In this document: positions 1-27,088 of the stretch, in pieces | Layout of the letters: every line of letters begins with the position of its first letter | Position numbering within the stretch: the first letter of the stretch is position 1 | Origin: Bacteroidota bacterium | GTDB lineage: Bacteria > Bacteroidota > Ignavibacteria > UBA10030 > UBA8401 | Length of the DNA stretch: 34,117 nucleotides | NCBI GenBank assembly: GCA_030824295.1 | Contig: JAVBYA010000057.1 | Span: 1 to 34,117 of the forward strand | Direction of reading: 5' to 3' | The notes under the pieces: generated by a model | Database searches by the model: none | Told to the model about the DNA's origin: nothing | Seen by the model: the letters and a program-made list of their open reading frames with translations, nothing else | Program-made: the position numbers and the translations under genes

Positions 1-413
1 CTGAATGCTGTTGTCAACGCCCGTACTTTGTGTTTTCGTTTTATGGTTTCTCGGATGATAGGGTATGCCGGATCTTCGCCATCGACAATCACTTCCGCCA
101 ACTGGACCGCATTAGGGGTCAGAACAATATCTATGCGTTCGGCTTGCTTCAAGTCGACAGTGCGTGCTTGTGCTTCAAAACCTACATATGAGAATCGTAA
201 TTTATAGATACCTTTAGACAATGATATTCGATATTCACCCTCAGAGTTGGACACTGTACCGATCTGAGTTCCAACAATGCGGATACTGGCGAATGGCAAT
301 TGTTTTCCCGCCTCATCTCTGATTGTTCCACTTATCGTAGCGGTAGAATCTTGAGACAGCATTGATTGACTCAAGAGAAAAAGATATAGAAACCACATCA
401 GATGATCTTTCAT
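1..413 (-). CDS. Carboxypeptidase-regulatory-like domain / probable DUF5686 outer-membrane protein (5' part only; runs off the left edge)
   Basis: Not in the ORF track; my own translation from ATG at 413 is open to the edge: MKDHLMWFLYLFLLSQSMLSQDSTATISGTIRDEAGKQLPFASIRIVGTQIGTVSNSEGEYRISLSKGIYKLRFSYVGFE...QLAEVIVDGEDPAYPIIRETIKRK. It shows a signal peptide, the CarboxypepD_reg-like pattern (G.I.D..G..LPFA...GT.SN.EG.Y...FSYVG) and the 'EDPAY.IIR' linker I associate with DUF5686 proteins. Confidence 0.8.
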   Translation of the reverse strand, partial: MKDHLMWFLYLFLLSQSMLSQDSTATISGTIRDEAGKQLPFASIRIVGTQIGTVSNSEGEYRISLSKGIYKLRFSYVGFEAQARTVDLKQAERIDIVLTPNAVQLAEVIVDGEDPAYPIIRETIKRKHKVRALTTAF

Positions 414-426
414 AGGCGTAATACTA

Positions 427-448
427 AAGGGCCGACTCAACGGCCCTT
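427..448 (-). terminator. Hairpin between the precursor gene and the DUF5686-like gene (weak terminator or mRNA stabiliser)
   Basis: On the minus strand AAGGGCCG-TTGAGT-CGGCCCTT, an 8-bp perfect stem with only a short U tail. Confidence 0.5.
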
Positions 449-479
449 CCTTTGTCATAGTTCTTTAATTGTGTATTTG

Positions 480-749
480 TTAGAGCGTCATACAGAGGAT
501 ACCAAATATTGCACACGCGGCGACTCCGAACCACGACAGCACCATCGTGAAGCAAAGAGTGGTGAAATGAATACATTCAACCGTTTCGACAGCATCCCCT
601 CCCCTGATACTCTGCATCTCGTCGGCGCTCAATGACACTCCCTGTTCGATCTGCACGTTCGCATCCATTGCCTGCGTCCGCGCGAGCGTTGTCTCGCCGA
701 CGAACAGCAGCCCAAGGAACAGCAAAAGAAATCCAAACGTCTTTTTCAT
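480..749 (-). CDS. Secreted double-glycine-leader precursor peptide (bacteriocin/RiPP-like) with a (C-x6-C)2 core
   Basis: RBS AAGGA before the ATG; Sec-type signal MKKTFGFLLLFLGLLFVGETTLA; leader motif LSADEMQSIRGG; 38-aa core with Cys59/66/79/86; adjacent to a C39 peptidase. Confidence 0.8.
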   Translation of the reverse strand: MKKTFGFLLLFLGLLFVGETTLARTQAMDANVQIEQGVSLSADEMQSIRGGDAVETVECIHFTTLCFTMVLSWFGVAACAIFGILCMTL

Positions 750-901
750 GGTTGTCCTTTTTGAAATAGTGATGAATGGGTTGTTTAGTCCCTCCTCACC
801 GCTGTCCGTCCGATGGTGTCATATCCGTGCGGGGTGCGGGGACAGGCCGCATCCAACACAGCTACGAGTGACCGCCGAACCGGTGAGTCAGGGTTGATTA
901 T

Positions 902-1474
902 TCAATGCCGGAAGATGAGCGTTTCACCGCTCCATCGTTCCTTGAACCGCGCTTCCGGGACCGCCAGACGGCCCACTCCGGGGTCGCGCAGATACACGGT
1001 GTGCCGGACGATACTGTCCACAACGACGAAATGGGATCGGTCGACGAACGCCAGCGCGGGGAGCGGTCCGGTGCGAAGATCATCAAAGGCGAGCTTCCAC
1101 CCTTCCGCATCCACTCCATACCGTTCTGCAGCATCCTTCAGCGCCAGCATCGACGCACCATCCTCCGTCAGCGGGATGCCGGATTCCAGTTCCTGCAATG
1201 GAACGTTCGTGCCGCGGCTTGATAACACCATCTTCAATGCGCTGGGGCCGCAGTTGTTCCGCGTAGTCTGCAGCACGACGCCGTCCCGCCCCAGATACTC
1301 CGTATCATTGAACAGCGACGTGAGTCGGATGTGGGAGCCGGGAACAGCGAGGAACCAGGCCCAGCCGACAGCGGCAAGAACGAAAAGAAATACTAAGAGA
1401 TGTTTCACGGTGATCCGGATCGGGGATGTTCTGTTCACGAATGCGCGGAGCTGTTTCTTCCCAATGTAATCCAT
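902..1474 (-). CDS. Stand-alone C39 family cysteine peptidase with an N-terminal membrane anchor
   Basis: Motifs LQTTRNNCGPSAL (Gln/Cys), SMLALKDAAERYG, HFVVVD (His) and LRDPGVG (Asp); no ABC domains. Start placed at the ATG at 1474 behind GAGGGGG; hydrophobic segment HLLVFLFVLAAVGWAWFLAV. Confidence 0.88.
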   Translation of the reverse strand: MDYIGKKQLRAFVNRTSPIRITVKHLLVFLFVLAAVGWAWFLAVPGSHIRLTSLFNDTEYLGRDGVVLQTTRNNCGPSALKMVLSSRGTNVPLQELESGIPLTEDGASMLALKDAAERYGVDAEGWKLAFDDLRTGPLPALAFVDRSHFVVVDSIVRHTVYLRDPGVGRLAVPEARFKERWSGETLIFRH

Positions 1475-1540
1475 CACCCCCCTCTTTGTCACGGAAAAAG
1501 CATTGTCCATTGAGGTCGGCGAACGATTGGCGGATGGGGA

Positions 1541-1579
1541 GAAAACGGCGATGCCATGACCGGACGGCCATGGCATCGC
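1541..1579 (-). terminator. Intrinsic terminator after DPP III (member of a repeated hairpin family)
   Basis: On the minus strand GCGATGCCATGGCCG-TC-CGGTCATGGCATCGC followed by CGTTTTCT. Confidence 0.7.
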
Positions 1580-1602
1580 AAGAGAGGGAGCAAGAGGGGT
1601 GG

Positions 1603-3696
1603 TTACTTCAGTTTGAGCGTCGTGCGGGCCTTCGCCTTCTCCTCTTTCGTGAAGGCGGAGTATTCGAGCATCTGTTTGCCGAGGTCGAGCGGGTAGACGA
1701 CCTTCACATCGGTCACTTTGCCTTTGGCATCCGTCACCGGTTCCAGCTTCGGCATGACGAATCCCACGTACACGGCGCGGTCCAGTTTCTCCATGCGGGA
1801 CAATACTTCATCACGCAGTGCTGTGTCGATCTTGAATCCGTACGTATCGATGAGCGTCTTCGCCGCCGCCAGGTCCCCTTCGGATTTGATCCGCTGCACT
1901 TCCGCCAGCAGCCGTCCCACGCCGTCGCGCATCTTCTCGAAGCTCGTCACGCGGAAGTAGGTCTTCCCCTCCTTCGTTGTCCGTTCGATGCAGTCTGCAT
2001 TCTTCCAGAGCCAGTGGATGATCATCTGGCGGTTCTTCATATGGTCCTCTTCCAGCTGGTCTTGTCCTTTCGGTACACGCTGCAGCTGTACGAGCGCGGA
2101 GTTCCGCACCTCTTTGGTGTACATCGCCTTCACGATATCCATCGTGTTGGGGATGATGCCGATCTCGACGAGCTTCGGGTCCCAGATATGATAGAGCGCC
2201 ACAAGGTCGGCGCGCGCTTCCTCCAGCGTGGAGTAATAGCCGGGGAGGGCCGCCTGCGGATCGACCGTGAGGGAGGGCGAGACCTTGCCGGAGGCATGGC
2301 CGAGCACTTCGTGGAGCGCAGTGTGCATATTGTCCGCCAGTGAACCGTACTTCTCGGAGAGCATCATCTCTTCTTCGTCGTACGCGAACTCCTTCAGGAT
2401 ATCCTTCCCGCCGGTCTTCTCGTACGCATCGACGATATTGAAGAGCGTCACCGATTTACTGCCGTGCAGTTCGCGTACATCCTGTTCGTTCGGCAGATTG
2501 ATGCCGATGGCGCTGACCGGTCCGGCGTCGCCCGTCTCCACCACCACGTTAATGACGGTGTACTTCAGCGGTTTCACATCCGCTTTCCTGTACTTCGCAT
2601 CCCACGGCATGCGGTCCTCGAAGTACTGGGCGTTGGTCCCGACCTTCTGGAAGAGTTCCGTCAGTTCCGGATTGGCGAAATTCACGACCGATTCGAACTG
2701 TCCTTTGGCTCCGCGTGCATCCAGATAGACCTCGATGAAGCCGTGGATCATATCCACCTGCGACTCCGTCTCCTTCACCCAGCCGATGTTGTACTCGCGC
2801 CAGTCGTTCAGGTCCCCCGTGCGGTAGAAGGTGATGAGCTTATCGAGATTCGCTGCCTGGCGTTTGTTGGAAGCGTACGCTTTCGCCTTCTCCAGATAAC
2901 CGATCGCCACCTGCAGGTCCTCGGCATACATGCCGGCAGGGATCTTCCCGCCGAGATGTGTGTTGCCGGTGCGATAGACCTTTTCGACGATCGTTCCGTT
3001 CTCCTTCACCACTTTGGAATTGAGCGGGTTCTTCTCATTCCCGGCCTTCGCCCATGCATCCACTTCGGCGAATGTGACCCCTTCATAATTATTGTTGGCG
3101 CTGCCGGCGATCATATCCTCCCCCGGCGTCTTGTTGGTCTGTACCGGTTCGAATGATCTGTCGAAGATGGAACGGCGGAGACGATCCAATTTTTGATCGA
3201 TGGTCTCACCCCTGGTCAACGTGACCGATGCGCCGTTGAAGATGGCCGCTTTCACCGCAAGGGAGAATTGTTCCGGAGTGAAGAGCGGGACGAACTTGCG
3301 GGAGGTGATGTTGTCGTACTGCGAGTTGTTCACCCAGAAGAGTTTCGTATAGAGAACGAACTGCTCCATCACGGCAGGGTCGATCCCTTTGGGATGCGTG
3401 TACACCGCTTCGAGCAGCTCGCGGATCTCCAGTGCGTGACGGTGGCGCTGGTCCACCGCGATATCCCGCGCGGCGATGGCGGACTTGTACAGATAGTAGG
3501 TGAAGATCTTCTCCTTCGCGGAGAGCTTCTCGAATCCGTCCGCATAGAGCTGGACGATGCGCACCGGGCCGACGTCGCCCATCTGCAGTTTCTCGATCGT
3601 GTATTGTCGTTCCATAAGGTTCGGCTGGGTTGGTTTGTCCTTGTGCTGTGCGCTGAGTGCGGTGATCATGATCAGTGTGAGTATGAATGCTTTCAT
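1603..3696 (-). CDS. Dipeptidyl peptidase III (peptidase M49), exported
   Basis: Hexapeptide zinc motif HEVLGH, EEARAD motif, GFIEVY.D.RG.KG.FE and IGINLPN; N-terminal signal peptide. Confidence 0.93.
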   Translation of the reverse strand: MKAFILTLIMITALSAQHKDKPTQPNLMERQYTIEKLQMGDVGPVRIVQLYADGFEKLSAKEKIFTYYLYKSAIAARDIAVDQRHRHALEIRELLEAVYTHPKGIDPAVMEQFVLYTKLFWVNNSQYDNITSRKFVPLFTPEQFSLAVKAAIFNGASVTLTRGETIDQKLDRLRRSIFDRSFEPVQTNKTPGEDMIAGSANNNYEGVTFAEVDAWAKAGNEKNPLNSKVVKENGTIVEKVYRTGNTHLGGKIPAGMYAEDLQVAIGYLEKAKAYASNKRQAANLDKLITFYRTGDLNDWREYNIGWVKETESQVDMIHGFIEVYLDARGAKGQFESVVNFANPELTELFQKVGTNAQYFEDRMPWDAKYRKADVKPLKYTVINVVVETGDAGPVSAIGINLPNEQDVRELHGSKSVTLFNIVDAYEKTGGKDILKEFAYDEEEMMLSEKYGSLADNMHTALHEVLGHASGKVSPSLTVDPQAALPGYYSTLEEARADLVALYHIWDPKLVEIGIIPNTMDIVKAMYTKEVRNSALVQLQRVPKGQDQLEEDHMKNRQMIIHWLWKNADCIERTTKEGKTYFRVTSFEKMRDGVGRLLAEVQRIKSEGDLAAAKTLIDTYGFKIDTALRDEVLSRMEKLDRAVYVGFVMPKLEPVTDAKGKVTDVKVVYPLDLGKQMLEYSAFTKEEKAKARTTLKLK

Positions 3697-8032: not shown

Positions 8033-8110
8033 GAACAACCACTGTGCATGGTCCTTTCCGTCCGTCACTGCGACGGCGCGGACGGACCGTCCCATACCAT
8101 AAAGGAATCT

Positions 8111-10366
8111 ATGAGAACGATCATGATCATCCTCTTCACGGCGGTGTCGCTGCTGCAGGCGCAGCAACTGACCGGCGTCGTGCTAGAGAAGAGCGAGGAC
8201 GGACATTTCCATCCGATCATCGGCGCGAACGTGTACTGGCTGAACACCGCCAGCGGCACCACGACCGATACAAGCGGGGTCTTCCGTCTGCCGCTGAATA
8301 CCGAAAGCAACAGATTGGTGGTCGGCTACATCGGCTACACGTCCGATACCGTGACGATCGCGGACCAGTATAAAGTGAACATCATCCTGAAAGCGGAGGC
8401 GAACAGTGTTGCCGAAGTGGAAGTAGTGGGCGAACGTCAGAGCACGTTCGTGAACTACCTTTCCCCGCAGAAGACCCTCGTGATGACGGAGAAGGAGCTG
8501 TTCAAAGCGGCCTGCTGCAATCTCAGCGAAAGCTTCGAGACCAATCCCAGCATCGATGTGTCGTTCACCGATGCGGTGACCGGCACGAAACAGATCGAGA
8601 TGCTGGGACTCTCCGGCATCTATTCGCAGATCACGCTGGAGAACCTGCCGGCGGTGCGCGGTCTCACCTCGACCGTCGGGCTCACGTACATCCCGGGCAC
8701 CTGGATCGAGAACATTCAGGTCTCCAAAGGGGTCGGTTCCGTGGCCAACGGATACGAATCCATCACCGGCCAGATCAATGTGGAGCTGCGGAAACCGCAG
8801 AACCTGGAAGAGAAACAGTTCTTTCTGAATCTGTTCGGCAATCAGGACCAGAGAATGGAGGCGAACCTGAACCTCCGCACTCCGCTCACAGAGGAACTCT
8901 CGTCCATGACACTGCTGCACGCCAGCACACAGCGGGCGAAGCTGGACGGCAACAACGACCGTTTCCTCGACATGCCGCTCTACAGCACTATGAATATCAT
9001 CCAACGGTTCCATTATTCGGACCATGTGGGATGGGAAGGTCAGCTGGGAGTGCAGTACGTGGATGACCGGAAGCAAGGGGGCACTGTGAGCGGATACGAT
9101 CTGGACAAATCTGTCCTGACGGCGCGTCCCTGGGAGTATTCGTTCCGCATGGGCGGCGACCAGCTGCGGGTGTGGGGAAAGACCGGCTATGTCTTCCCGC
9201 AGAAGCAGTATCAGAGCATCGGGATGCAGTGGTCCTTTACGCGGAACCGGCAGAATTCCTTCTTCAATTCGCATGACTACAATGCGTACGAACAGTCCGG
9301 GTACGCGAACCTGATCTACCAGTCCATCTTCGACAACACCACGCACAAATTCCGCACCGGCGCCAGCTTCCTCTACGACCGGTACGACGAGACGTTCCAG
9401 CACGTGAGGTACGAGAGGACGGAGCGTGTTCCAGGTGCGTTCTTCGAGTACACCTATTCCCCCGGCGACGAGTTCTCCCTGATCGCGGGCGTGCGGGCGG
9501 ACCATCACAATCTCTTCGGCACGTTCACCACGCCTCGCATCCACATGCGGTACACGCCGCAGGAGGACTGGGTCTTCCGTGCGGTGGCGGGTCAGGGACA
9601 GCGGACGGCGAACATCTTTGCCGAGAACATGGCGTACTTTGCCAGCGCGCGGCATGTGAAGATCCTCCCCTCCAACACCAATGTGCTGTACGGATTGGAG
9701 CCGGAGCGGGCAACGAATCTTGGGTTCAACATGACGCACTACTTCCTGTGGGACTATCGGGAGGCGACGATCGCGGTGGACCTGTACCGGACCGATTTCC
9801 GGGACCAGGTCGTGGCGGATCTGGATACGGACGCGCAGGAGGTGCACTTCTATAATCTGAACGGTGAATCGTTCTCCAACAGCATCCAGGTGGAACTCAA
9901 CATCCAGCCGCTGGAGCTGCTCGATACGCGCATTGCGTACCGGTTCTATGATGTGCAGCAGACGGTGAACGGCACGCTGCGGGACCGGCCGTTCGTGGCG
10001 CAGCACCGTGCGTTCATCAATTTCGGATATGCGGAGCAGCGCGAGGAGGAGAGCGATGCGGCGATGTCGTATGACCTGACCGTGCAGTGGTTCGGCACAA
10101 AGCGGCTGCCGGACACGCAAAGCAATCCGACGGGGCTCCGCGCACGCGCCGAGTCGCCGAGCTTCGTTCTGGCGAACGCGCAGGTGACCCGTTCCTTCTT
10201 TGCCGGACTGGATCTCTATCTCGGCATCGAGAACATCACCGGGTTCCGTCAGGACGATCCGATCCTGGATGCGGCGAACCCGAACGGCGGATTCTTCGAC
10301 AGCGCGCTGGTGTGGGGTCCGCTCAACGGAAGAACAGCGTATCTCGGACTGCGCTGGAGGATGTAA
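8111..10366 (+). CDS. TonB-dependent receptor with a carboxypeptidase-regulatory-like N-domain (metal-associated type)
   Basis: RBS AAGGA and ATG at 8111; signal peptide; plug motifs KAACCNLSESFETNPSIDV and IENIQVSKGVGSV.NG.ESITGQIN; barrel C-terminus GRTAYLGLRWRM. Confidence 0.92.
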   Translation: MRTIMIILFTAVSLLQAQQLTGVVLEKSEDGHFHPIIGANVYWLNTASGTTTDTSGVFRLPLNTESNRLVVGYIGYTSDTVTIADQYKVNIILKAEANSVAEVEVVGERQSTFVNYLSPQKTLVMTEKELFKAACCNLSESFETNPSIDVSFTDAVTGTKQIEMLGLSGIYSQITLENLPAVRGLTSTVGLTYIPGTWIENIQVSKGVGSVANGYESITGQINVELRKPQNLEEKQFFLNLFGNQDQRMEANLNLRTPLTEELSSMTLLHASTQRAKLDGNNDRFLDMPLYSTMNIIQRFHYSDHVGWEGQLGVQYVDDRKQGGTVSGYDLDKSVLTARPWEYSFRMGGDQLRVWGKTGYVFPQKQYQSIGMQWSFTRNRQNSFFNSHDYNAYEQSGYANLIYQSIFDNTTHKFRTGASFLYDRYDETFQHVRYERTERVPGAFFEYTYSPGDEFSLIAGVRADHHNLFGTFTTPRIHMRYTPQEDWVFRAVAGQGQRTANIFAENMAYFASARHVKILPSNTNVLYGLEPERATNLGFNMTHYFLWDYREATIAVDLYRTDFRDQVVADLDTDAQEVHFYNLNGESFSNSIQVELNIQPLELLDTRIAYRFYDVQQTVNGTLRDRPFVAQHRAFINFGYAEQREEESDAAMSYDLTVQWFGTKRLPDTQSNPTGLRARAESPSFVLANAQVTRSFFAGLDLYLGIENITGFRQDDPILDAANPNGGFFDSALVWGPLNGRTAYLGLRWRM

Positions 10367-14597: not shown

Positions 14598-16391
14598 CTA
14601 TTTGAGCAGTGTCATCTTTATGGTGCGATGCTCACTGCCGTACTGAACACGCGCAAGATACGTACCGCCGGCAAGAGATGTTGCATCGAACGTGATGCGG
14701 TACTGACCGGGACGCGCGGAAGATTCTTCCAGAAGTTCCGCCACTTCCTGTCCGAGCATGGAGTAAACACGGACAGAAAGCGAGGCGCCGGAAGAGGACT
14801 GCGGCACGGCAAATTCAATAGTGGTGGATGGATTGAACGGATTCGGATAGTTCTGCCGCAGCGTGAATGTTTGCGGTATTGTGCCGGTCGGGATGATGCC
14901 GTTCGGCTTTGCTGCCGGGGCGAAGGTAACGGCAAAGATCCCTTCCGTTCCCGCCGGAATCCTCAGCTGGAGTGATGTGGAATCGAAATTCGTATACACG
15001 GCACCGTTCCGTTTCACACCGGCGATCTTCAGACTTCCGTCCGGCAGACCGACGGGACGGAGCCGCAGTGTGCGCGTATGCGGCAGTGCTGAAAAGCGGT
15101 AATGCAGCGTCGCCGGCTCTTTCTTGACAAGCAGCGAACCATACAGATAGGTGTAGTATCCGGTTTCGATGGAATGGTAGGCCGCTTTGCCGCCTCCCCC
15201 CTTGGTCGTTCCCCACTGTGTGATGAATCCGCCGTACTTGTTCGCGTTCTCGAATACATCACCGTACACATGGTCCACAAAATACTTCATGAAAAAGTCG
15301 AGCGATGCATCCGCCATGGTGCGATACTTCTCTTTGCCGGTGAGCTGATAGAGCATCAGACCTGCTGTGACCGCCTGTTCCATCTGCCACCACGCCTTCG
15401 CCGTATCGGTGATGCCCCACATCAGCATCTGTCCCGTCACACGGTTGTAGTCTTTGTACGGTCCGCCGTTCTGATGGTCGTATCCCTTCGCCATGACATT
15501 CTCCGCAAGCATCTCTGCGGTGGAGAGATAGACCGGGTTCGGGTCGAGCTGATAGATGCGTCCCAGACACCATGCGGTCTTCAGCACGTGGCCCATGATG
15601 GTCATCGTTTCGGATGGTTTGATGGTCCATGCTGAATTGTATTTCTCCGCAAAACCGATCTGCTGCGATGCTGCGGTGGAAGCGATACGGGAGACCATAT
15701 TGTCCGCCAGTTCCTGCAGCCGGAGCAGATACTTCTGTTCACCGGTCATCATATACAGATGCAGTACATGGGTGGTCACGGCATCGACCGTGGCATTGAA
15801 ACTCTTGTCCGCCGCACCGGTGCCGTTCGCTGCCACATAATCGAAGTATCCGAACGCCAGTCCATCCTTGTCCCACAGTTTCGCTTCGTTATAGTCGTAT
15901 CCCTTCATCAGCCACTGCCATTCCGCGGTGTCGCGGAGCGCTTCGTATGCCGCAGCGATACCAAGAAGCGCGTAGTGCTGATAGTAGGCGGTCTTGGCCG
16001 CATTGGGGCTGACGGGCGTGCCGGAGATGCCGAGATCGTTGATCCATCCGCCGTAGGTATCGTCCCACGAATGCTGATACATGAAATCGAGCGCGTAGCG
16101 TGCGTAGCGGAGATAGACGGTATCACCGGTCATCTGGAATGCACGGATGAACCCGTAGGCGTCGCGCGACTGGTTGAGGGTGTTCTTCAGCGAAGTGCCG
16201 AACGGACTCCCCTGCCGGTTGATATTCACAAAGAATCCGCCGTTCACCGGATCGTACGCCTTCATCCAGAACTTCGCACAGCTGTCCACATACCCGATGG
16301 TCATGGAGGTGTTCTGAAGATACTGCGACGTGAATGATGTCTGAGCTGCAGCGAACTGCAGAAGGAATGTCAGGATCAGGAGAAGCTTCAT
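14598..16391 (-). CDS. AGE/cellobiose-2-epimerase family (alpha/alpha)6 protein with a T9SS C-terminal sorting domain
   Basis: D..NGGFF, QSR..YGF, GHVLKTAW, KAWWQ.EQA and KAAYH motifs; signal peptide; C-terminal LRQNYPNPFNPST...KMTLLK. Confidence 0.85.
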   Translation of the reverse strand: MKLLLILTFLLQFAAAQTSFTSQYLQNTSMTIGYVDSCAKFWMKAYDPVNGGFFVNINRQGSPFGTSLKNTLNQSRDAYGFIRAFQMTGDTVYLRYARYALDFMYQHSWDDTYGGWINDLGISGTPVSPNAAKTAYYQHYALLGIAAAYEALRDTAEWQWLMKGYDYNEAKLWDKDGLAFGYFDYVAANGTGAADKSFNATVDAVTTHVLHLYMMTGEQKYLLRLQELADNMVSRIASTAASQQIGFAEKYNSAWTIKPSETMTIMGHVLKTAWCLGRIYQLDPNPVYLSTAEMLAENVMAKGYDHQNGGPYKDYNRVTGQMLMWGITDTAKAWWQMEQAVTAGLMLYQLTGKEKYRTMADASLDFFMKYFVDHVYGDVFENANKYGGFITQWGTTKGGGGKAAYHSIETGYYTYLYGSLLVKKEPATLHYRFSALPHTRTLRLRPVGLPDGSLKIAGVKRNGAVYTNFDSTSLQLRIPAGTEGIFAVTFAPAAKPNGIIPTGTIPQTFTLRQNYPNPFNPSTTIEFAVPQSSSGASLSVRVYSMLGQEVAELLEESSARPGQYRITFDATSLAGGTYLARVQYGSEHRTIKMTLLK

Positions 16392-16990: not shown

Positions 16991-19153
16991 CTATTTCAAC
17001 AGCAGCATCTTGCGTGTTTCGGTGAATGCACCGGCCCGTAGACGGTAGAAGTATACACCGCTCGGCAGATGCGCACCATTGAACGGCACGGAGTAGGTTC
17101 CCGCATCGACCGTTCCGTTCACCAATACCGCGACTTCTTGTCCGAGCACATCATAGACCGTGAGAGTCGCCATGCCGGTGCGCGGGATGGTATACATGAT
17201 GGTCGTGACCGGATTGAACGGGTTCGGGAAATTCTGCGACAGTGCGAACGCTTCCGGTACACCCGTCCGGTTCGGAACGTCCATGATGATCGGCTGCGTA
17301 TTCAGTATGGCGCCGGTCTGCAGATCGCACAGGTACAACATACCGCCCATCCATTGATTCTGGTTCTGATCGATCTGATAGTTGTACGCATACGCAACGG
17401 CCCAATAGGACTTACTGGTATCCACTCCCGGATTTCCTCCGAACCACATGTTCTGCTGGTTAGAGAGAGAAAGCTCCACGCGGAACTCCCACTGCGGCGG
17501 GATCTCTGCCATACGGATCTGTTTGCCGCCGGCTGCTTCTACGTTCGCGATGACTGTGGCGCTGGATGCCGCCTGCATATGTCCGGTGATCGGCTTCAAC
17601 ATGCTCATCCATTGGAAGTACTGCTGGTCCATATCTTCCACGCGCAGATCCATCGTGCCGATCTGTATGAGCTTTCCTGCAGTGTTGCCGTTCACTGCAT
17701 AGGCGAATTGCCACGATCGGGCGCGTCCCAGTGTATCCACATCCCAGCCGGAGATGCGCCGCAGGGAACGGTCCGCCGGCAGCCGCGCGGCGGCGAGACT
17801 GTCCGCACGCTGAAGCGCCTGGTCATAACGGAACGGCGTCAGTTTGAAGAATGTCAGTTCCACACCGGTGACCGATGCGTTGTTCACGATGATGGAATCG
17901 CCGAACGCCATCACGTCGATGCCGTTGTCCGGATTCAGCTCACCGTCCTTGTTAACATCCTTTGCTGCGAGCGGCCAATACGTTCCGTTCGGTACATACG
18001 GGACGGTGAAGGTGCCGTTGGCATTGACCATTCCCCAGCCGCCGAACGGCGGAGTACCCTCGACCTTCTCCTGCATGAAGTTCACTTTGGCAAGTCCGAC
18101 CACCGTTCCTTCAACAGTTTCACCGGTCGTACCGGAGAGAACGGTACCGCTCACGGAGGTCGTCGGGAATGCCGCACCGGTAGTGAAATAATATATCTGC
18201 GGTACATTCATCACCGAGCCGCCGCTCGATCGGATGTACATGAACGAGATGAAGTACGGTGTGTTCGGTTTGAGCACGACGGTGCTCCAGATGGTCTTCC
18301 CGTCATCGCTCACGCCGCTCGCCACGAGACTGTCGACGCTGCTGAACCAGGTCTCTCCTGCATCCTCCATCGATTCCATATCGACCGGTTCGCTGAAGGT
18401 GAGACTGAGTGTGGTCTGCAGCGGTACATTCACCGACAGGTTCGCCGGCTGTACGGAGAGGAGTGAGAAGAAGGTCATGGAGAGGTTCGTAATATTCCCA
18501 TTGTTCACCACGATGGAATCCCCCATCACCACCACATCACCGCCGCGGCCGGGATCGAGCTGTCCGTCCCCGTTCACATCCTTCGCTGCGAGCGGCCAGT
18601 ACGTTCCGTTCGAAACATACGGGATGGTGAATGTCCCGTTCGCGTTCACGTTCGCCCAGCCGCCGAACGGCGGCGGACCATCGGTCTCTTCCTTCATGAA
18701 GTTCACTTTGGAAAGCGCGACCACAGAACCGGCAGGCGGAATGTTGACCGTCCCGGCAGAGAGCGTGCCGCTCACGGAGTACGGCGCGAACGCCGTCCCG
18801 GTCGTGAAATAATAGACATGCGGCGTGGTGATGAGCGCGCCGGATTTCGCCTTCACGTACGAGAATGCATAGAAATAACTGGTGTTCGGTTTGAGCACGT
18901 GCGTGCTCCAGGCGGTCTTGGCATCCGCACTGTACCCGTGCGACACTGTGCTGTCGATGTTGGTGAACCAGGAGCCTTCATCGGTCCCGTTCATGGCGAC
19001 CGTATCGAGCGCTTCGGAGAAGGTGATGCTGAGTGTAATGGTCAGCGGTACATTCACGGCATTGTTGGCCGGCTGCGTGGAGACGACCGCGAATTGAGCG
19101 GAGAGCAGCGCGGGGATCAGCAGCAGGAAGAGTGTGCGTAGAAGGATGTTCAT
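16991..19153 (-). CDS. T9SS-secreted protein with a duplicated Ig-like (Big_5-like) module
   Basis: Signal peptide; two copies of S.QPAN..VNVPL..TLS.TFSE..D...LKPNT.Y...YYFTTG...YWPLAAKDVN.DG.L; C-terminal LSQNFPNPFNP...RKMLLLK. Confidence 0.88.
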   Translation of the reverse strand: MNILLRTLFLLLIPALLSAQFAVVSTQPANNAVNVPLTITLSITFSEALDTVAMNGTDEGSWFTNIDSTVSHGYSADAKTAWSTHVLKPNTSYFYAFSYVKAKSGALITTPHVYYFTTGTAFAPYSVSGTLSAGTVNIPPAGSVVALSKVNFMKEETDGPPPFGGWANVNANGTFTIPYVSNGTYWPLAAKDVNGDGQLDPGRGGDVVVMGDSIVVNNGNITNLSMTFFSLLSVQPANLSVNVPLQTTLSLTFSEPVDMESMEDAGETWFSSVDSLVASGVSDDGKTIWSTVVLKPNTPYFISFMYIRSSGGSVMNVPQIYYFTTGAAFPTTSVSGTVLSGTTGETVEGTVVGLAKVNFMQEKVEGTPPFGGWGMVNANGTFTVPYVPNGTYWPLAAKDVNKDGELNPDNGIDVMAFGDSIIVNNASVTGVELTFFKLTPFRYDQALQRADSLAAARLPADRSLRRISGWDVDTLGRARSWQFAYAVNGNTAGKLIQIGTMDLRVEDMDQQYFQWMSMLKPITGHMQAASSATVIANVEAAGGKQIRMAEIPPQWEFRVELSLSNQQNMWFGGNPGVDTSKSYWAVAYAYNYQIDQNQNQWMGGMLYLCDLQTGAILNTQPIIMDVPNRTGVPEAFALSQNFPNPFNPVTTIMYTIPRTGMATLTVYDVLGQEVAVLVNGTVDAGTYSVPFNGAHLPSGVYFYRLRAGAFTETRKMLLLK

Positions 19154-20104: not shown

Positions 20105-22120
20105 TCACCAGATCACCACGCGCTGCTCCTGTGTGCGGTAGAGCATTCCGCTCTCGCATTCGAACGCATCAAAGAATTCCTGCATGTTGGAAAGCGGACC
20201 GTTCGTCCGGAACATGGCGGGAGAATGGGGATCGGTCCTCACCTGCAGCCGGAGCGCTTCGTCCCGGTAATTACGCCGCCAGACGCGCGCCCAGGCCAGG
20301 AAGAACCGCTGTCCCGGCGTGAAGTCGTCGATGATATACAGGTTCGGCTGCTTATCCAGTTCCTTCTGCAGCGCCGCGTATGCGATGGCAAGCCCTCCGA
20401 GATCCGCAATGTTCTCCCCGCTCGTCAGTTTCCCGTTCACGTGCAGCGAATCGAGGACCGTGTACCCGTTGAACTGCGCTTCCAGCTGCGCCACACGCGC
20501 ATCGAACTGTTTCCGCGTTGCTTCGCTCCACCAGGAGCGGAGGTTCCCTTCCGCATCGTACTTGCTCCCCTGATCGTCGAATCCGTGCGTCAACTCGTGG
20601 CCGATCACCGCGCCGATGCCGCCGTAGTTCAGCGCATCATCCGCCGCCGGGTCATAGAACGGCGGCTGGAGGATGGCAGCCGGGAAGACGATCTCGTTCA
20701 GATTGGCATTGTAGTACGCATTGACGGTCTGCGGCGTCATCCCCCACTTCTCACGGTCCACCGGTTTGCCGATGGTGGCGACATCCTTCGCGAACGCGAG
20801 CGCGTTCCCGCGGCGGATGTTCTGCAGATAGGAACTGCGGTCGATGACGAGCGCACCGTAATCCTCCCACTTGTCCGTGTAGCCGATCTTCACGGAGAAC
20901 GATGCAAGCTTCTCCTGCGCCGCTGCACGCGTTACTGCGTCCATCCACGGCAGCGAATCGATCCGCTCGCTGAATGCAGCGATGATATTGTCCACCATGA
21001 TGCGCGCTTTCTGTTTCGCTTTCGGCGAGAAGGTGGTCAGGACGAACTGTTCGCCGAGCGCCTCTCCCATCGCGCCGTTCACAGAGGCAAGCACCCTCTT
21101 CCATCGCGGCTGCATCTCCTTCGCACCGGTCAGGATGGTGCCGGTGAACCGAAAATGCTCCGCAACGAACGGAGCGCTGAGCGCAGGTGCGGCGGCGGAG
21201 AGCACCTTCCAACGGAAGTAGGCCCTCCAATCCGCAGCATCGACGGAATCGATCATCAGCGCCGCTTCGGTCAGGAACGGCGGCTGACCGGCATTCACCA
21301 CGGTCACCTGCGGTGCATTGACGAGGCGGAAGTATTCCTCCCAATCCATCCCCGGTGTTCTGGATGTCAATTCAGCGACCGACATTTTGTTATAGTTCTT
21401 GTCCGGATCACGGCGCTGCACACGGGTGAACGATGCGTTTGCCAGGCGCGTCTCGAACTCCATCACTGCTTCACTCTGTTCCTCCGCTGCCGCCGTATCA
21501 TCCCCCGCCAGGATGAACATCGTTGTCATATACGCACGGTATTCATTGCGGATCGACTGTGACCGTTCATCCGCAGCAAGGTAATAGTCACGGTCCGGCA
21601 GTCCGAGTCCCCCCTGTGCCAGCTGTGCAATGACGCTCTTGCTCTCCTTCTCATCCTGATCCGCAGAGAAGCGGAAGAGTGTCCGTATCCCCATGGTATG
21701 CTGCAATGCGATCTCTTTCCGGATCCCGGCCGGGTTTTCGATGCGGGAGATGCGGAGCATATCCTCCTTGAGCGGCGTAACACCGATCTTCTCGATCCGG
21801 TCGACATCCATCCCGGAAGCGTAGAGGTCTCCCAGCTTCCGCCGGTTGCTCCCCTTTACCGCACGGGTATCGGCGGCGGATTCCTCCAGGATCTGTTTCA
21901 GTACGGCGGCGTTCTTCTCGTTCAGCTCATTGAAACTTCCCCACATGCTGAACTCCGGCGGGATGGGATTGTTCAGCAGCCAGCTGCCGTTAGCGAAATG
22001 ATAGAAGTCGTCGCAGGGCGCCACGGTCCGATCGAGGGTGGAGGTGTCGAGCGGCGGTTTCCGTTTGGTTTGTGCAGTAAGGAGTGTACAGCAGAGCAGT
22101 ACGGCGAGAAGGTACTTCAT
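20105..22120 (-). CDS. M13 family metallopeptidase (neprilysin/PepO-like), exported
   Basis: PCDDFY.FANG.W, VNAYY, HELTHGFD, GENIADLGG and DPHSP motifs; signal peptide from the ATG at 22120. Confidence 0.95.
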   Translation of the reverse strand: MKYLLAVLLCCTLLTAQTKRKPPLDTSTLDRTVAPCDDFYHFANGSWLLNNPIPPEFSMWGSFNELNEKNAAVLKQILEESAADTRAVKGSNRRKLGDLYASGMDVDRIEKIGVTPLKEDMLRISRIENPAGIRKEIALQHTMGIRTLFRFSADQDEKESKSVIAQLAQGGLGLPDRDYYLAADERSQSIRNEYRAYMTTMFILAGDDTAAAEEQSEAVMEFETRLANASFTRVQRRDPDKNYNKMSVAELTSRTPGMDWEEYFRLVNAPQVTVVNAGQPPFLTEAALMIDSVDAADWRAYFRWKVLSAAAPALSAPFVAEHFRFTGTILTGAKEMQPRWKRVLASVNGAMGEALGEQFVLTTFSPKAKQKARIMVDNIIAAFSERIDSLPWMDAVTRAAAQEKLASFSVKIGYTDKWEDYGALVIDRSSYLQNIRRGNALAFAKDVATIGKPVDREKWGMTPQTVNAYYNANLNEIVFPAAILQPPFYDPAADDALNYGGIGAVIGHELTHGFDDQGSKYDAEGNLRSWWSEATRKQFDARVAQLEAQFNGYTVLDSLHVNGKLTSGENIADLGGLAIAYAALQKELDKQPNLYIIDDFTPGQRFFLAWARVWRRNYRDEALRLQVRTDPHSPAMFRTNGPLSNMQEFFDAFECESGMLYRTQEQRVVIW

Positions 22121-22167
22121 TGGAGCCCCCGGAGCAATTGAGTACATACGGCGGTATCAGCCGCGGT

Positions 22168-23957: not shown

Positions 23958-25130
23958 TTATGAGGAACGGAGTGCGTTGATGATGTTCATCCGCGATGCA
24001 CGTACCGCGGGGAGGAATCCGCCGGCGATACCCATGATCAGGAAGAAGACGACCGTCCAGAGGATGACGCTGCCGGAGAGCGAGAACCCGAACGCCAGCT
24101 CGGAGAAGGAACCGAAGTTGGTCGTGGAGAACGAGACGAACTCCATGAACGATGCCAGGAAGAGTCCGATGATGCCGCCGATACTGGAGAGCGCTACCGC
24201 TTCGATAAGGAACGCGGTGAGGATGCTCGTCCTGCGGAAGCCGAGAGCACGCAGCGTGCCGATCTCCACCGTGCGGTTTGCGACGGATGCATACATGGTG
24301 ATCATCGCACCGATCATCGCGCCAAAACTGAAGATGACGGTGATGAACAGGCCGAGTCCGTTGATGAAGCCGGCCATGAACTTGGACTGTTCCAGATAGA
24401 ACTCCTGTTCCCGCTTCACTTCCAGGTCCTGCAGACGCTGTTCGGTCTCCAGTTTCGTTTTGATGGTCTCGAAATCATTCACATCCTTCAGTTTGAAGGT
24501 GTAGGTGGAATAGGTCGTGCCGCGGTTGAACTCCGTCATGACGATGTCCGCATCGGTCCAGACCTCGGACGCAAAGCCGGTCTTGCCGCCGTTGATCACG
24601 CCGACGATGGTCCAGAGTTTCGAACCGATCTGCACCGACTGTCCGACCTCCATGTTCACGAACTGGTCGTGGATCTTGTTCCCCACCACGATCTCGTACA
24701 TGCCGGGCTGGAACCAGCGTCCTTCCTGCAGACTCACCTGCGGACGGAGCGCGAACGCACCGGAGGAGATGCCGCGGACCGCAACATTCCCCATGTCGTT
24801 GGAGCCTTTCTTGTTGATGTTGATGAGCGTGACCACGTCCGACGTGGCGAACGGTTTCCCCTCCTGCGTCTGACCGACCTCCGGGAAGGTGGAGATGATG
24901 CCGATCTGGTCGCGGCTGACGGCACTCATCATCTCGCTTTGCGAACTCTTGCGGAGGATGATGACGTTGTCGTTGGAGCCGGTCGCCACGAGCGTGTCCT
25001 CAACGCCCTGCGAAAGCATCAGCACGGAAGCGAAGACGAACACGACAAGGGCGATGCCGGAGACGGTGAGCGCCGTGGTAAGGCGGCGTGCCCAGAGATT
25101 TCGAATGTTATAAGAGATGGGTATGCTCAT
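23958..25130 (-). CDS. ABC transporter permease (MacB/FtsX family)
   Basis: RNLWARR..T.LT..GI; large periplasmic domain; R..EIGTLRALGF; PAVRASR. Confidence 0.92.
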   Translation of the reverse strand: MSIPISYNIRNLWARRLTTALTVSGIALVVFVFASVLMLSQGVEDTLVATGSNDNVIILRKSSQSEMMSAVSRDQIGIISTFPEVGQTQEGKPFATSDVVTLININKKGSNDMGNVAVRGISSGAFALRPQVSLQEGRWFQPGMYEIVVGNKIHDQFVNMEVGQSVQIGSKLWTIVGVINGGKTGFASEVWTDADIVMTEFNRGTTYSTYTFKLKDVNDFETIKTKLETEQRLQDLEVKREQEFYLEQSKFMAGFINGLGLFITVIFSFGAMIGAMITMYASVANRTVEIGTLRALGFRRTSILTAFLIEAVALSSIGGIIGLFLASFMEFVSFSTTNFGSFSELAFGFSLSGSVILWTVVFFLIMGIAGGFLPAVRASRMNIINALRSS

Positions 25131-25198
25131 AGTTCTGTCTGATTATGCCCTCCGCTGCACACTGCGTCGGACGGCTGTTGAATTCCGATCGTTTCGAA

Positions 25199-26362
25199 TT
25201 ATCCTATCTGCCGCAGCCCGTCCACGATCCGCATCGTCGCGGAACGGTATGACGGGAAGATGGAAGCAATGACCCCTACCAGCACCGAGAACCCGATCGC
25301 CATCGCAATGGTCGTCGGCTGAACAGCGAACACCGGGAACATGGTCGGGAACGCATCGCCGAACGCCTGACTGACCGGGAAGGTGAGTATGAGTCCGACC
25401 GTGCCGCCGAGCATGCTGATGAAGAGCGATTCACCGGCAATGAGTCCCACCACATGGAAGTTGGTGAAGCCGAGCGTCTTCAGCACCGCATACTCACGGA
25501 TGCGTTCACGCGCCGCCATGATGATGGTGTTCGCCAGCACCATCAGAATGATGCCGATGATCACGTACGAGACCACTTCCATCGAAGCGATGATGGCACC
25601 GGAGAGCGAGACGAAACTCTGTTGGAACGCTTTCTCCGTTTCGGTCTTCGTTTTGGCCGGGGAGTTCACGTAGAGCGCGTCGATCGCTTCGGAGATCGTT
25701 GCCGCCTGGTTCGGATCGTCCACCTGGATGATGTACCATCCGATCTGGTCCGTGGCGAACGATTCGGTCTGACGGTTCCGTTCGTTCATGTACTCCCAGT
25801 TGAAGAAGAGCTGCGTTTCATCCGCCGTCTTATCCTTGCCGTAGTAGATACCGACCACCGTGAATTCCCAGTTGCCCGGATAGATGTCCCCGGTGACCGG
25901 GATGATGTCGCCGATCTTGAAGCCATGCTGCTCCGCCAGTTTCTTCCCGATCACGCAGCCGTTCCGCTGCTGTTTGAATGCGGTCAGCTGGTCCGCCGGC
26001 AGTGTGAATTCAGGATAGACGTCGAAGATCGTTTCCGGATCCACGGCCAGACGCGGGAAGAAGTTCTCGAAGCTCTGGTCCTTATAGGTGCCCTGGAACC
26101 AGGATGCGTACGATACTTTCTTCACCCCCTCCAGCTGTTCCAATTGACCTTTATACGCATACGGGAGCGGGAAGATGAATGCCACGGCATGCCGCGTGAT
26201 GAGCCGGTCCGCCGATGCCGCTTCCACCCCGTAGGACCAAGCGGTCACTACGGTGCGGAGCAGACCGAACGCCAGCACGGCAATGGCGATGCCGGCGATG
26301 GTCAACAGACTGCGGAGTTTGTGCCGCAGCAGATTCTTATAGATGAGTTTGAGTATTTTCAT
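25199..26362 (-). CDS. ABC transporter permease (MacB/FtsX family)
   Basis: KNLLRHKLRSLLT..GI; RERIREYAVLKTLGF; 4-TM topology. Confidence 0.92.
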   Translation of the reverse strand: MKILKLIYKNLLRHKLRSLLTIAGIAIAVLAFGLLRTVVTAWSYGVEAASADRLITRHAVAFIFPLPYAYKGQLEQLEGVKKVSYASWFQGTYKDQSFENFFPRLAVDPETIFDVYPEFTLPADQLTAFKQQRNGCVIGKKLAEQHGFKIGDIIPVTGDIYPGNWEFTVVGIYYGKDKTADETQLFFNWEYMNERNRQTESFATDQIGWYIIQVDDPNQAATISEAIDALYVNSPAKTKTETEKAFQQSFVSLSGAIIASMEVVSYVIIGIILMVLANTIIMAARERIREYAVLKTLGFTNFHVVGLIAGESLFISMLGGTVGLILTFPVSQAFGDAFPTMFPVFAVQPTTIAMAIGFSVLVGVIASIFPSYRSATMRIVDGLRQIG

Positions 26363-26381
26363 GGATGTCGTTGTCCTGCGG

Positions 26382-27059
26382 TTAATTGGACTTCAGTTCG
26401 CCTTTGTCCAGATGCTGGATCGTATGCGCGCTCTCTGCCGCATGAGGATCGTGCGTGACCATGATGATGGTCTTCTTGAACTCGCTGTTCAGCCGGCTGA
26501 GCAGGACGAGGATCTCCTCTGCCGATTTACGGTCCAGGTCGCCCGTCGGTTCGTCGCCGATGATGAGCGTCGGATCGGAAACGATGGCGCGCGCGATCGC
26601 CACACGCTGCTGCTGTCCGCCGGAGAGCTGTTTGGGATAATGGTCCATGCGGTCCGCCAGACCGACCACGCTGAGCACCGCTTCTACGCGCTGCTGCTTC
26701 TCCTTCTTGGAGAGGTTCGTCAGCAGCAGCGGCAGTTCCACATTCTCGAATGCTGTCAGGACCGGCATCAGATTATAGAACTGGAACACGAAGCCGATGT
26801 GATTGGAGCGCCATTTCGCCAGCGCCGATTCGTTCAGCTTCGCGATATCGGTCCCGCCCACCAAGATGGAGCCGGAGGTCGGCTGATCGATGCCGGAGAT
26901 GAGGTTCAGCAACGTGGTCTTTCCGGAACCGGAAGGTCCCATCAGCGCGAGGAACTCCCCTTCCGGGACATCGAGCGAGATGTTCTGCAGTACCGGGATC
27001 TCCATCGTGTCCCGCTTGTACACTTTGGTGACGTTCTTGACTTCTACTAATGTAGACAT
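26382..27059 (-). CDS. ABC transporter ATP-binding protein (LolD/MacB family)
   Basis: Walker [32 protein letters not shown] and VTHD. Confidence 0.96.
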
Positions 27060-27088
27060 AGGGGTATGTGGTTAGTGAGTGATTGAAG

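Follow-up and report, generated by a model that had tools for sequence, protein, structure and literature searches.

The 34,117-nucleotide stretch of DNA analyzed here (the window) is a contig from a Bacteroidota bacterium of the class Ignavibacteria (JAVBYA010000057.1, assembly GCA_030824295.1). Near its left end, it carries a gene for an 89-residue peptide precursor next to a gene for a stand-alone C39 cysteine peptidase. Our data show that the precursor is tripartite, with a Sec-type signal, a double-glycine (GG) leader and a cysteine-containing core, and that the core is swapped with nucleotide sharpness. We take the locus to belong to a variant of double-glycine peptide biosynthesis that is undescribed in the literature we searched. 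From the sequence, we infer export by Sec, cleavage after G51, nested disulfides, membrane activity and an antagonistic role. The reading that we consider rather likely is a Sec-dependent, periplasmically matured, disulfide-stapled membrane-active peptide of the bacteriocin or microcin kind, made by a two-step route independent of ATP-binding cassette (ABC) transporters and diversified by recombination of its core.

A tripartite precursor and its family

The core (residues 52-89) reads DAVETVECIHFTTLCFTMVLSWFGVAACAIFGILCMTL. Its cysteines at positions 59, 66, 79 and 86 give the spacing C-x6-C-x12-C-x6-C, it contains no lysine or arginine, and it has a net charge of -3 and a grand average of hydropathy (GRAVY) of +1.53. 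Translation thus confirmed a preliminary description made from the letters of the DNA, which had called the core acidic and hydrophobic with this cysteine spacing. The leader ends in LSADEMQSIRGG and has the pattern of a GG leader, with a hydrophobic residue at -12, E or Q at -8, hydrophobic residues at -7 and -4, and glycines at -2 and -1; the adjoining C39 gene encodes all the catalytic residues. Canonical GG leaders have positions of the type L-12, E-8, M-7, I-4, G-2 and G-1. When we searched NCBIfam with the precursor, we detected two sub-threshold matches, one of residues 28-53 to the ComC leader (E = 0.0037) and one to a lichenicidin A2 family model (17.4 bits, with the cut-off at 32.95; E = 0.0044); the Pfam search of the precursor returned no family.

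A word-indexed search identified four database homologues, 52-72% identical to the precursor, all of which retain the four cysteines, S72 and W73 and vary at the remaining core positions. The cysteine spacing is kept and S72 is invariant in five of five close homologues, and residues 1-27 are identical at 19 to 27 of 27 positions in the ten pairwise comparisons among them. Conservation is sharply divided in the pair P0001 and P0002, which are identical at 51 of 51 positions in signal and leader and at 13 of 38 in the core.

To reach more distant members of the family, we built a profile that included weaker relatives from the same genome and from related genomes. Against 1.84 billion representative sequences, this profile gave 34 matches at E ≤ 0.001, and we inspected 32 of them as sequences (P0034, a protein of 1767 residues, is among the 34 and outside the 32). 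All but one of the inspected matches (31 of 32) are precursors of 69-134 residues and identical build. The off-type match, P0017 (401 residues), has ten tandem leader-like repeats (..LDTLEMQSIEGG..) and a C2H2 zinc-finger-like segment; we rejected it as a family precursor, since it is an unrelated repeat protein and an off-target of the leader profile.

Profile matches and locus-derived sequences together make a wider set of 47 unique precursors. All 47 have the two glycines, with a consensus of L/M at -12, E/Q at -8, M/L at -7 and I/V/T at -4, and 46 of the 47 begin with K/R followed by at least 12 uncharged residues. Four cysteines are present in 40 of the 47 cores (39 as parsed automatically, and P0032 after correction by eye), and the other seven have 5, 6 or 8. 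In 38 of the 40 four-cysteine cores, the first and third spacings are equal, the asymmetric pair being P0031 and P0033. Twenty of these cores have x6/x6 arms around loops of 8, 9, 12, 13, 14 or 19 residues, and 18 have the spacing x10/x9/x10. If the peptides are antiparallel hairpins with nested cross-links, such fixed and equal arms around a variable loop are to be expected. The net charge of the 47 cores ranges from -7 to 0, with none positive. A tryptophan is found in the loop of 32 of the 37 parser-symmetric cores, and the residue preceding it varies across the wider family (G, S, L, F, I or T). Of the two core features whose conservation the preliminary description had left to homologues, the cysteine spacing holds in the five close homologues, with symmetric arms in 38 of the 40 four-cysteine cores of the wider set; the loop serine is conserved only in the closest subfamily. 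We also observed a third type of core behind the shared signal and leader (L015 1134-1217 and L016 1120-1215, both on the minus strand, P0030, and P0036-P0038). Cores of this type are short and have 5-6 cysteines, for example in the arrangement C-x7-CCC-x8-C-x-C.

The cysteine pattern by itself is not rare. When we scanned all six frames of the 3.4-Mb assembly for C-x6-C-x(6-18)-C-x6-C close to a stop codon and with G[GAS] upstream, the bare pattern occurred nine times, seven of them in implausible frames; it stands above chance because it is conserved in homologues, not because the motif is uncommon. The peptide family is itself rare and patchy. It has 32 short-form representatives (69-134 residues) among the 1.84 billion sequences and was found in five of the 301 genomes that we sampled from the phylum. 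Four of the five, including the window's own, belong to the window's order. A locus search with the peptide alignment found no relatives among 260 pattern matches in genome contigs or 594 in metagenome contigs. The window's own genome encodes a second family peptide on another contig, C296 (G000:C296; L002 1483-1746, minus strand, and L028), as an 87-residue open reading frame (ORF) with the spacing C-x6-C-x13-C-x6-C.

We next turn to the predicted structure. AlphaFold2 (AF2) modeled the full precursor, from a 10-row alignment, with a mean predicted local distance difference test score (pLDDT) of 69.6 and helices at residues 2-33, 42-49, 53-69 and 73-88, the core blocks scoring 80-85. The core alone, from a 4-row alignment, was predicted with a pLDDT of 85.4 as a helix (2-18), a loop (19-21, corresponding to V70-L71-S72) and a second helix (22-37). 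The cysteine pairs are symmetric about S72/W73 (59 + 86 = 66 + 79 = 145), and on a helical wheel the two cysteines of each helix lie 20 degrees apart on one face. The model thus agrees with the helical hairpin with symmetrically placed cysteine pairs that had been proposed from the letters, and it suggests that nested C59-C86 and C66-C79 disulfides would staple this hairpin. On the Eisenberg scale, the mean hydrophobicity and hydrophobic moment are 0.40 and 0.12 for helix 1, and 0.76 and 0.15 for helix 2. Both helices are therefore hydrophobic and non-amphipathic, as would suit a hairpin that is embedded in a membrane or bound by a carrier better than an amphipathic peptide in solution. A Foldseek search of the PDB with the core model gave no match at E ≤ 0.001, the best being BAK alpha5-alpha6 hairpins (E = 5.3) and the plant alpha-hairpinin nigellin-1.1 (E = 8.5). 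VIA-align comparison of the full model with 48,161 chains returned nothing specific (best Z 6.3, generic helical hairpins), and the top ESM Atlas score was 0.81, to unnamed clusters.

Core exchange, the C39 peptidase and the gene cassettes

To look for variation at the locus, we aligned contigs of four public sequencing runs to window 1-1700. A 6386-nucleotide contig from run X3, which belongs to a different study, is as long as the contig recorded for P0002. It matches window 598-1700 at 98.6% identity (15 mismatches, two gaps), then continues for 210 nucleotides beyond the junction that cannot be aligned at 85% likeness. By eye, the first ten codons past the junction match the start of the P0002 core. 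The breakpoint and the P0002-like core together show that two nearly identical backgrounds differ in their cores, and that the point of joining is exactly the predicted cleavage site. We read the core as a swappable specificity module; the evidence for recombination at the GG codon is at the level of DNA and comes from one other metagenome. From runs X4 and X6 we obtained short contigs that end near positions 618 and 679, none of them over the core, and this missing cover proves nothing. Base composition changes at the same place: G+C content at third codon positions (GC3) is 0.70-0.81 in the signal, the leader (0.75), the C39 gene and the neighboring genes, 0.55 in the core and 0.39 in the downstream gene, and the overall G+C profile steps down at about position 600, the leader/core boundary (41-45% in window 1-600, and 55-62% elsewhere in the left part of the window).

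Table 1. Features at the left end of the window.
Feature	Position	Strand	Description	Basis
Peptide-precursor ORF	480..749	minus	89 residues; stop codon at 480-482	translation
Sec-type (signal peptidase I) signal	669..749	minus	codons 1-27; MKK, 15 uncharged residues, TLARTQA	inspection
Double-glycine leader	597..668	minus	codons 28-51; MDANVQIEQGVSLSADEMQSIRGG; L-12, E-8, M-7, I-4, G-2, G-1	family consensus and translation
Core	483..596	minus	codons 52-89; 38 residues; predicted helix-loop-helix	translation, alignment, AF2
Recombination junction	597..599	minus	within the Gly51 codon, at the leader/core boundary	X3 contig alignment
Stand-alone C39 cysteine peptidase	905..1474	minus	directly upstream of the peptide gene	Pfam PF03412, E = 6.1e-29
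N-terminal fragment, CarboxypepD_reg and probable DUF5686 outer-membrane protein	3..413	minus	directly downstream of the peptide gene	Pfam PF13715, E = 6e-21
Stem-loop, 14 pairs, with T-run	1548..1579	minus	follows the M49 peptidase gene and sets it apart from the C39-peptide unit	
Stem-loop, 8 pairs, G+C-rich	427..448	both	between the peptide gene and the gene downstream of it; may be a partial terminator or an attenuator; listed on the plus strand	

The C39 peptidase has 190-224 residues, depending on its start; the longest ORF begins at 1576, and the likely start is 1474 or 1510. The protein has a basic N-terminus and one transmembrane (TM) helix ahead of the C39 domain. Its catalytic residues Q69, C75, H148 and D164 (numbering of the 190-residue form) are invariant in seven of seven C39 orthologues. 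The N-terminal flank contains four K/R residues, the 15 residues past the TM helix have a net charge of -1, and the positive-inside rule, applied to all seven orthologues, predicts an N-in/C-out topology with the catalytic domain in the periplasm. There is precedent for an active periplasmic C39 peptidase in FapD, whose target is described as unclear in the sections cited (PMC5557850). Apart from the stand-alone peptidase, the assembly, which is 90.5% complete, contains no PF03412 match, so no peptidase-containing ABC transporter (PCAT) was found in it.

A search for the C39 protein in 61 relatives identified it in 13 genomes, all from one taxonomic family. In 11 of the 13 loci, it adjoins a gene for a cysteine-rich peptide with Sec signal and GG leader; the other two loci are L019 and L022, and in L022 the C39 match is weaker and lies within a 722-residue frame. 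In L030 (G007:C23, 8494-10582), we observed M49 peptidase and 2-oxoacid:ferredoxin oxidoreductase genes shared with the window, together with a thioredoxin and a C39 gene followed by ORFs of 184 and 102 residues that have no Pfam family, and no recognizable GG/Cys peptide. Structure prediction of the C39 domain in complex with precursor residues 28-89 scored 0.34, against 0.00 for the best control (partner pLDDT at least 53, runs agreeing in at least 74% of contacts); among solved complexes, 58 of 80 reach the mark used, as do 2 of 110 mismatched pairs. This result weakly backs the pairing of C39 and precursor, as C39-leader complexes have already been solved and the score may reflect memory of them.

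To define the gene content around the peptides, we clustered the genes of eight extended loci and the window and scanned them with Pfam. The genes that recur among these nine cassettes encode a TM-anchored TlpA-like thioredoxin, C39, the peptide, a 170-residue secreted protein of no family, a Yip1/YknW-like multi-TM protein, and then either a MauE/DoxX or a DUF5686 protein; the genes flanking them are housekeeping genes. The cassette MauE proteins match PF07291 with E-values of 1e-20 to 1e-28 and are paired with a thioredoxin-fold CxxC protein. We found no glycosyltransferase, ABC exporter, sensor kinase, regulator, LanM-type dehydratase/cyclase or other modification enzyme belonging to any of the nine. 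The only glycosyltransferase nearby is a GT4 protein five genes away in L027, and none of the assembly's 25 matches to glycosyltransferase family 2 (GT2) lies on C441 or C296, the two contigs that carry family peptides.

The window locus is reduced to C39, peptide and DUF5686 genes. The combination of a four-cysteine peptide, a thiol oxidoreductase and a multi-TM protein is found in sister and orthologous cassettes, not in the visible window locus. In the same genome, the C296 cassette encodes a TlpA-like thioredoxin, the 170-residue secreted protein, the peptide, a Yip1/YknW-like protein and MauE, and no C39. Its MauE is the only match above cut-off in the assembly, where we detected no DsbB or VKOR. 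With MauE/thioredoxin on C296, C39 in the window and no DsbB or VKOR, the two loci look complementary. The earlier suggestion that the cysteines are oxidized outside the cytoplasm is accordingly supported by the Sec-type signal, by the predicted orientation of C39, and by the TlpA-like thioredoxin and MauE of the sister cassettes, including the one in this genome.

The downstream gene leaves the contig after 152 residues. Its product best matches the cassette DUF5686 proteins of L023, L024 and L029 (30-36% identity, E = 1e-22 to 1e-26), and matches a TonB-dependent receptor with E = 3e-6. With the window, these make four loci with a DUF5686 protein downstream. The cassette DUF5686 proteins have beta-signal-like C-termini, suggesting that they are probably outer-membrane barrels; a literature search for "DUF5686" turned up no functional study. 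We rejected window 8048-10366 as another DUF5686 gene, since Pfam identifies its product as a TonB-dependent receptor that has only the CarboxypepD_reg domain in common. Contig G000:C102 (1-1572; GC3 0.49) begins within a DUF5686 gene, from position 153 of the hidden Markov model onward, and by eye continues with YeeE/YedE-like membrane genes. This contig may hold the remainder of the truncated downstream gene; the two do not overlap, and about 140 residues would be missing.

Several other features of the window touch on secretion or on the expression of the locus. The stem-loop at 427-448 is palindromic and so forms on the minus-strand transcript too, where its T-tail is weak. A sigma-70 promoter scan gave one match against 0.8 expected and is uninformative for this lineage. 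A 796-residue protein encoded at 27089-29479 (minus strand) combines a Peptidase_C39_2-like domain with a Golvesin C-terminal domain and a type IX secretion system (T9SS) C-terminal sorting domain; its gene adjoins one HlyD-type and two MacB/FtsX-type genes (23958-30712) and is probably unrelated to the peptide locus. T9SS sorting domains are also found on a GlcNAc 2-epimerase-like and a Big_5 protein (14598-16391 and 16991-19153, minus strand), and an M13 peptidase is encoded at 20105-22147. The T9SS domains are consistent with a Bacteroidetes/Ignavibacteriae lineage, the labels borne by the metagenome-assembled genomes that hold the nearest relatives of one of the window's housekeeping genes.

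A proposed maturation route and its alternatives

We propose that the precursor would be processed as follows. The Sec signal would carry it over the inner membrane, and its four cysteines would be oxidized in the periplasm to the nested C59-C86 and C66-C79 pairs, stapling two hydrophobic helices; the oxidant is probably the TlpA-like thioredoxin/MauE pair of the C296 sister cassette. The inner-membrane-anchored periplasmic C39 peptidase would then cleave after Gly50-Gly51 and free a 38-residue acidic, non-amphipathic, membrane-seeking hairpin. Recombination at the Gly-Gly codon would set varied cores behind an identical leader, and the DUF5686 outer-membrane protein encoded downstream might serve as exit pore, immunity factor or receptor partner. 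Bacteriocins, pheromones and polymorphic toxins typically combine a handle that does not vary with a core that recombines, and for this reason we rank a bacteriocin-like role ahead of a recognition signal or a resident membrane subunit.

A number of observations weigh against this proposal. The AF2 confidence derives from shallow alignments of 4-10 rows. No thioredoxin, MauE, Yip1 or 170-residue-protein gene lies by the peptide in the visible window locus, so that complementation in trans from the C296 cassette is an assumption; the C39 gene directly adjoins that of the M49 peptidase, and 480 nucleotides of contig remain downstream of the peptide. We identified no immunity gene in the window. 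The C39 locus L019/L030 is syntenic with the window and lacks a recognizable peptide of the Sec, GG and cysteine kind. Bacteriocins are usually cationic according to the part of the literature cited here (PMC9486217), and all 47 cores are acidic or neutral. A contig from the RNA library X19 covers 940-1117 within the C39 gene without a mismatch, a weak hint of transcription of the C39 gene only, as the peptide gene is uncovered and the contig could derive from DNA.

A more ambitious version of our proposal, which we regard as possible but doubtful, is a polymorphic, ABC-independent "Sec-microcin" system, in which a fixed Sec and GG handle would serve interchangeable, stapled, TM-like hairpins that travel with a cognate DUF5686 exit, immunity or receptor module. 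If true, it would mirror, at the scale of a peptide, the way in which contact-dependent inhibition (CDI) and Rhs systems swap C-terminal toxin/immunity modules, and would define a clear substrate class for periplasmic C39 peptidases.

Four alternatives compete with the bacteriocin-like reading. The peptide could instead be a secreted recognition or signaling molecule, similar to a pherotype, that is sensed by a co-varying partner such as the DUF5686 protein, with core swaps making strain-specific pairs rather than toxins. An invariant leader with a core exchanged at the GG codon would suit this role, as would the weak ComC-likeness of the leader, the absence of an immunity gene from the window and the acidity of the cores, unlike most antimicrobial peptides; low GC3 also reaches into the downstream gene, so core and neighbor may move together. 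The lack of a sensor kinase or regulator in the nine cassettes, and GRAVY values of about +1 to +1.6 that are ill-suited to a diffusible signal, leave this explanation with an outside chance.

About equally unlikely, in our judgment, is a resident small membrane protein, a stapled hairpin kept in the producer's own inner or outer membrane, for example as a subunit of the DUF5686 barrel or of the Yip1 protein. A core swap between strains that are 98.6% identical would be unexpected for a housekeeping subunit, as would 34% core identity behind a leader that is 100% identical. The rarity and patchiness of the family (5 of 301 genomes) speaks against it too, and the helices, with 16-17 residues each, are short for spanning a membrane bilayer. 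What this explanation would account for is the non-amphipathic, TM-like character of both helices and the fact that no exporter was identified; the conserved tryptophan by the turn and the acidic N-terminus may suit interface positions.

We consider very improbable the third alternative, a true Gram-negative glycocin whose hairpin is O- or S-glycosylated in the loop, as in sublancin and glycocin F. It would explain the (C-x6-C)2 pattern, since this pattern with nested disulfides joining two helices is the glycocin hallmark (as in ThtA, PMC12139839), and it draws on the invariance of S72 in the close homologues. In the wider family, however, the residue before the loop tryptophan is variable, no glycosyltransferase lies in or by the nine cassettes, and no GT2 gene is on C441 or C296. 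Known glycocin leaders are removed by a PCAT, as far as the cited account goes (PMC12457901), whereas this locus has a stand-alone C39 and a Sec signal, and cytoplasmic glycosylation ahead of Sec export would require an unlinked enzyme. The glycocin-like identity floated in the preliminary description was therefore not borne out, while its caution that glycosylation is unsupported holds for all nine cassettes and for both contigs, the window's left flank lying beyond the contig end.

The last alternative, a conventional cytoplasmic GG peptide that starts at M28 (ATG at 666-668), skips the Sec step and uses an unlinked ABC exporter, would have a 24-residue leader of typical length and a ComC-like match that begins at residue 28, and is hardly credible given that residues 1-27 are conserved as protein, that 46 of 47 family members have a signal-like N-terminus, that no PCAT was found in the assembly, and that peptidase and thioredoxin are membrane-anchored and predicted to face outward.

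In the textbook picture, double-glycine peptides are processed by cytoplasmic C39 domains that are fused to ABC exporters. A GG leader behind a Sec signal, cut by a membrane-anchored periplasmic C39, would amount to a second, two-step route in diderm bacteria, to which the dedicated MauE/thioredoxin pair adds. The precursor also offers a recognizable candidate substrate for the poorly understood periplasmic C39 peptidases. Symmetric (C-x6-C)2 and (C-x10-C)2 hairpins would represent a glycocin-type staple without glycosylation, outside Firmicutes, and the sharp core swap provides a testable case of modular secreted-peptide diversification in uncultured freshwater and wastewater Bacteroidota-like bacteria.

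Comparison with known systems

Our literature search found no description of the cassette, or of Sec and GG precursors with a stand-alone C39 in Bacteroidota, beyond Fap, Nap and general reviews (supplementary peptide lists were not covered), and a search for "MauE" with "bacteriocin" returned mostly unrelated bacteriocin papers. In their cysteine arrangement, the peptides resemble the glycocins of Firmicutes (sublancin 168, glycocin F and thermoglycocin), with which they share a GG leader and C-x6-C arms on two predicted helices. As reported in the sections cited, two helices are joined by two nested disulfides in every well-characterized glycocin, as in ThtA (Cys7-Cys30 and Cys14-Cys23; PMC12139839), and thioredoxin-like proteins are likewise encoded in their gene clusters (PMC12139839, PMC12457901). 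In contrast to glycocins, our locus has no glycosyltransferase and no C39-ABC transporter, and instead encodes a stand-alone membrane-anchored C39; its precursor has a Sec signal, for which the glycocin descriptions drawn on here give no counterpart; and its cores are far more hydrophobic, acidic, and from a Bacteroidota-like lineage. No sequence similarity was detected, as the core profile matched no PDB sequence at E-values up to 10. The peptide is not a glycocin, as it lacks the two defining features that can be tested, the glycosyltransferase and the PCAT.

Class II microcins resemble our peptides as products below 10 kDa whose GG leader is cut by a C39 peptidase, as described in part of one report (PMC11798529). 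They differ in one-step export through a PCAT, a membrane fusion protein and TolC; here there is no such linked exporter, and the assembly contains a single C39 match. Class II microcins are hydrophobic, and some are acidic and disulfide-bearing.

The Fap (FapD/FapF; PMC5557850) and Neisseria nap (NapP/NapF; PMC11798529) systems, insofar as the cited sections describe them, pair a periplasmic C39 acting on Sec-pathway or GG-motif substrates with a gene for an outer-membrane barrel. FapD is soluble with a Sec signal of its own (PMC5557850), whereas the C39 described here is TM-anchored. For Nap, the periplasmic location of NapP is proposed, the peptides are cationic, and inner-membrane crossing is speculative, again going by the sections cited (PMC11798529). 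Unlike both, the system described here has predicted cysteine-stapled acidic hairpins, canonical leaders, an oxidation pair of its own, and DUF5686 in the place of the barrel.

In methylamine dehydrogenase maturation, MauD and MauE act in disulfide formation. The likeness lies in a MauE-family protein and a thioredoxin-fold CxxC protein that accompany a small, multi-disulfide periplasmic product. The substrate here would be a 38-residue peptide rather than an enzyme subunit, and the genes lie on C296 and in relatives, outside the window.

Finally, the bacteroidetocins (class IIf, Bacteroidales) share with our peptides a phylum-level lineage, a GG leader and four cysteines thought to form disulfides, according to the portions cited (PMC6671954). 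In a host without general disulfide machinery, their clusters have a dedicated thiol oxidoreductase and a multi-TM accessory gene adjoining the peptide (PMC6671954), as do the sister and orthologous cassettes here, though not the visible window locus. Their leader is given there as 15 residues long, with no Sec signal and with a C39-ABC transporter (PMC6671954). Our precursor, compared with them by description only, has a Sec signal and a 24-residue leader, a stand-alone C39, and cassettes with MauE or DUF5686. The same report, in the part cited, draws an argument for cluster-encoded thiol oxidoreductases in Bacteroides that parallels the one made here for the thioredoxin/MauE pair (PMC6671954).

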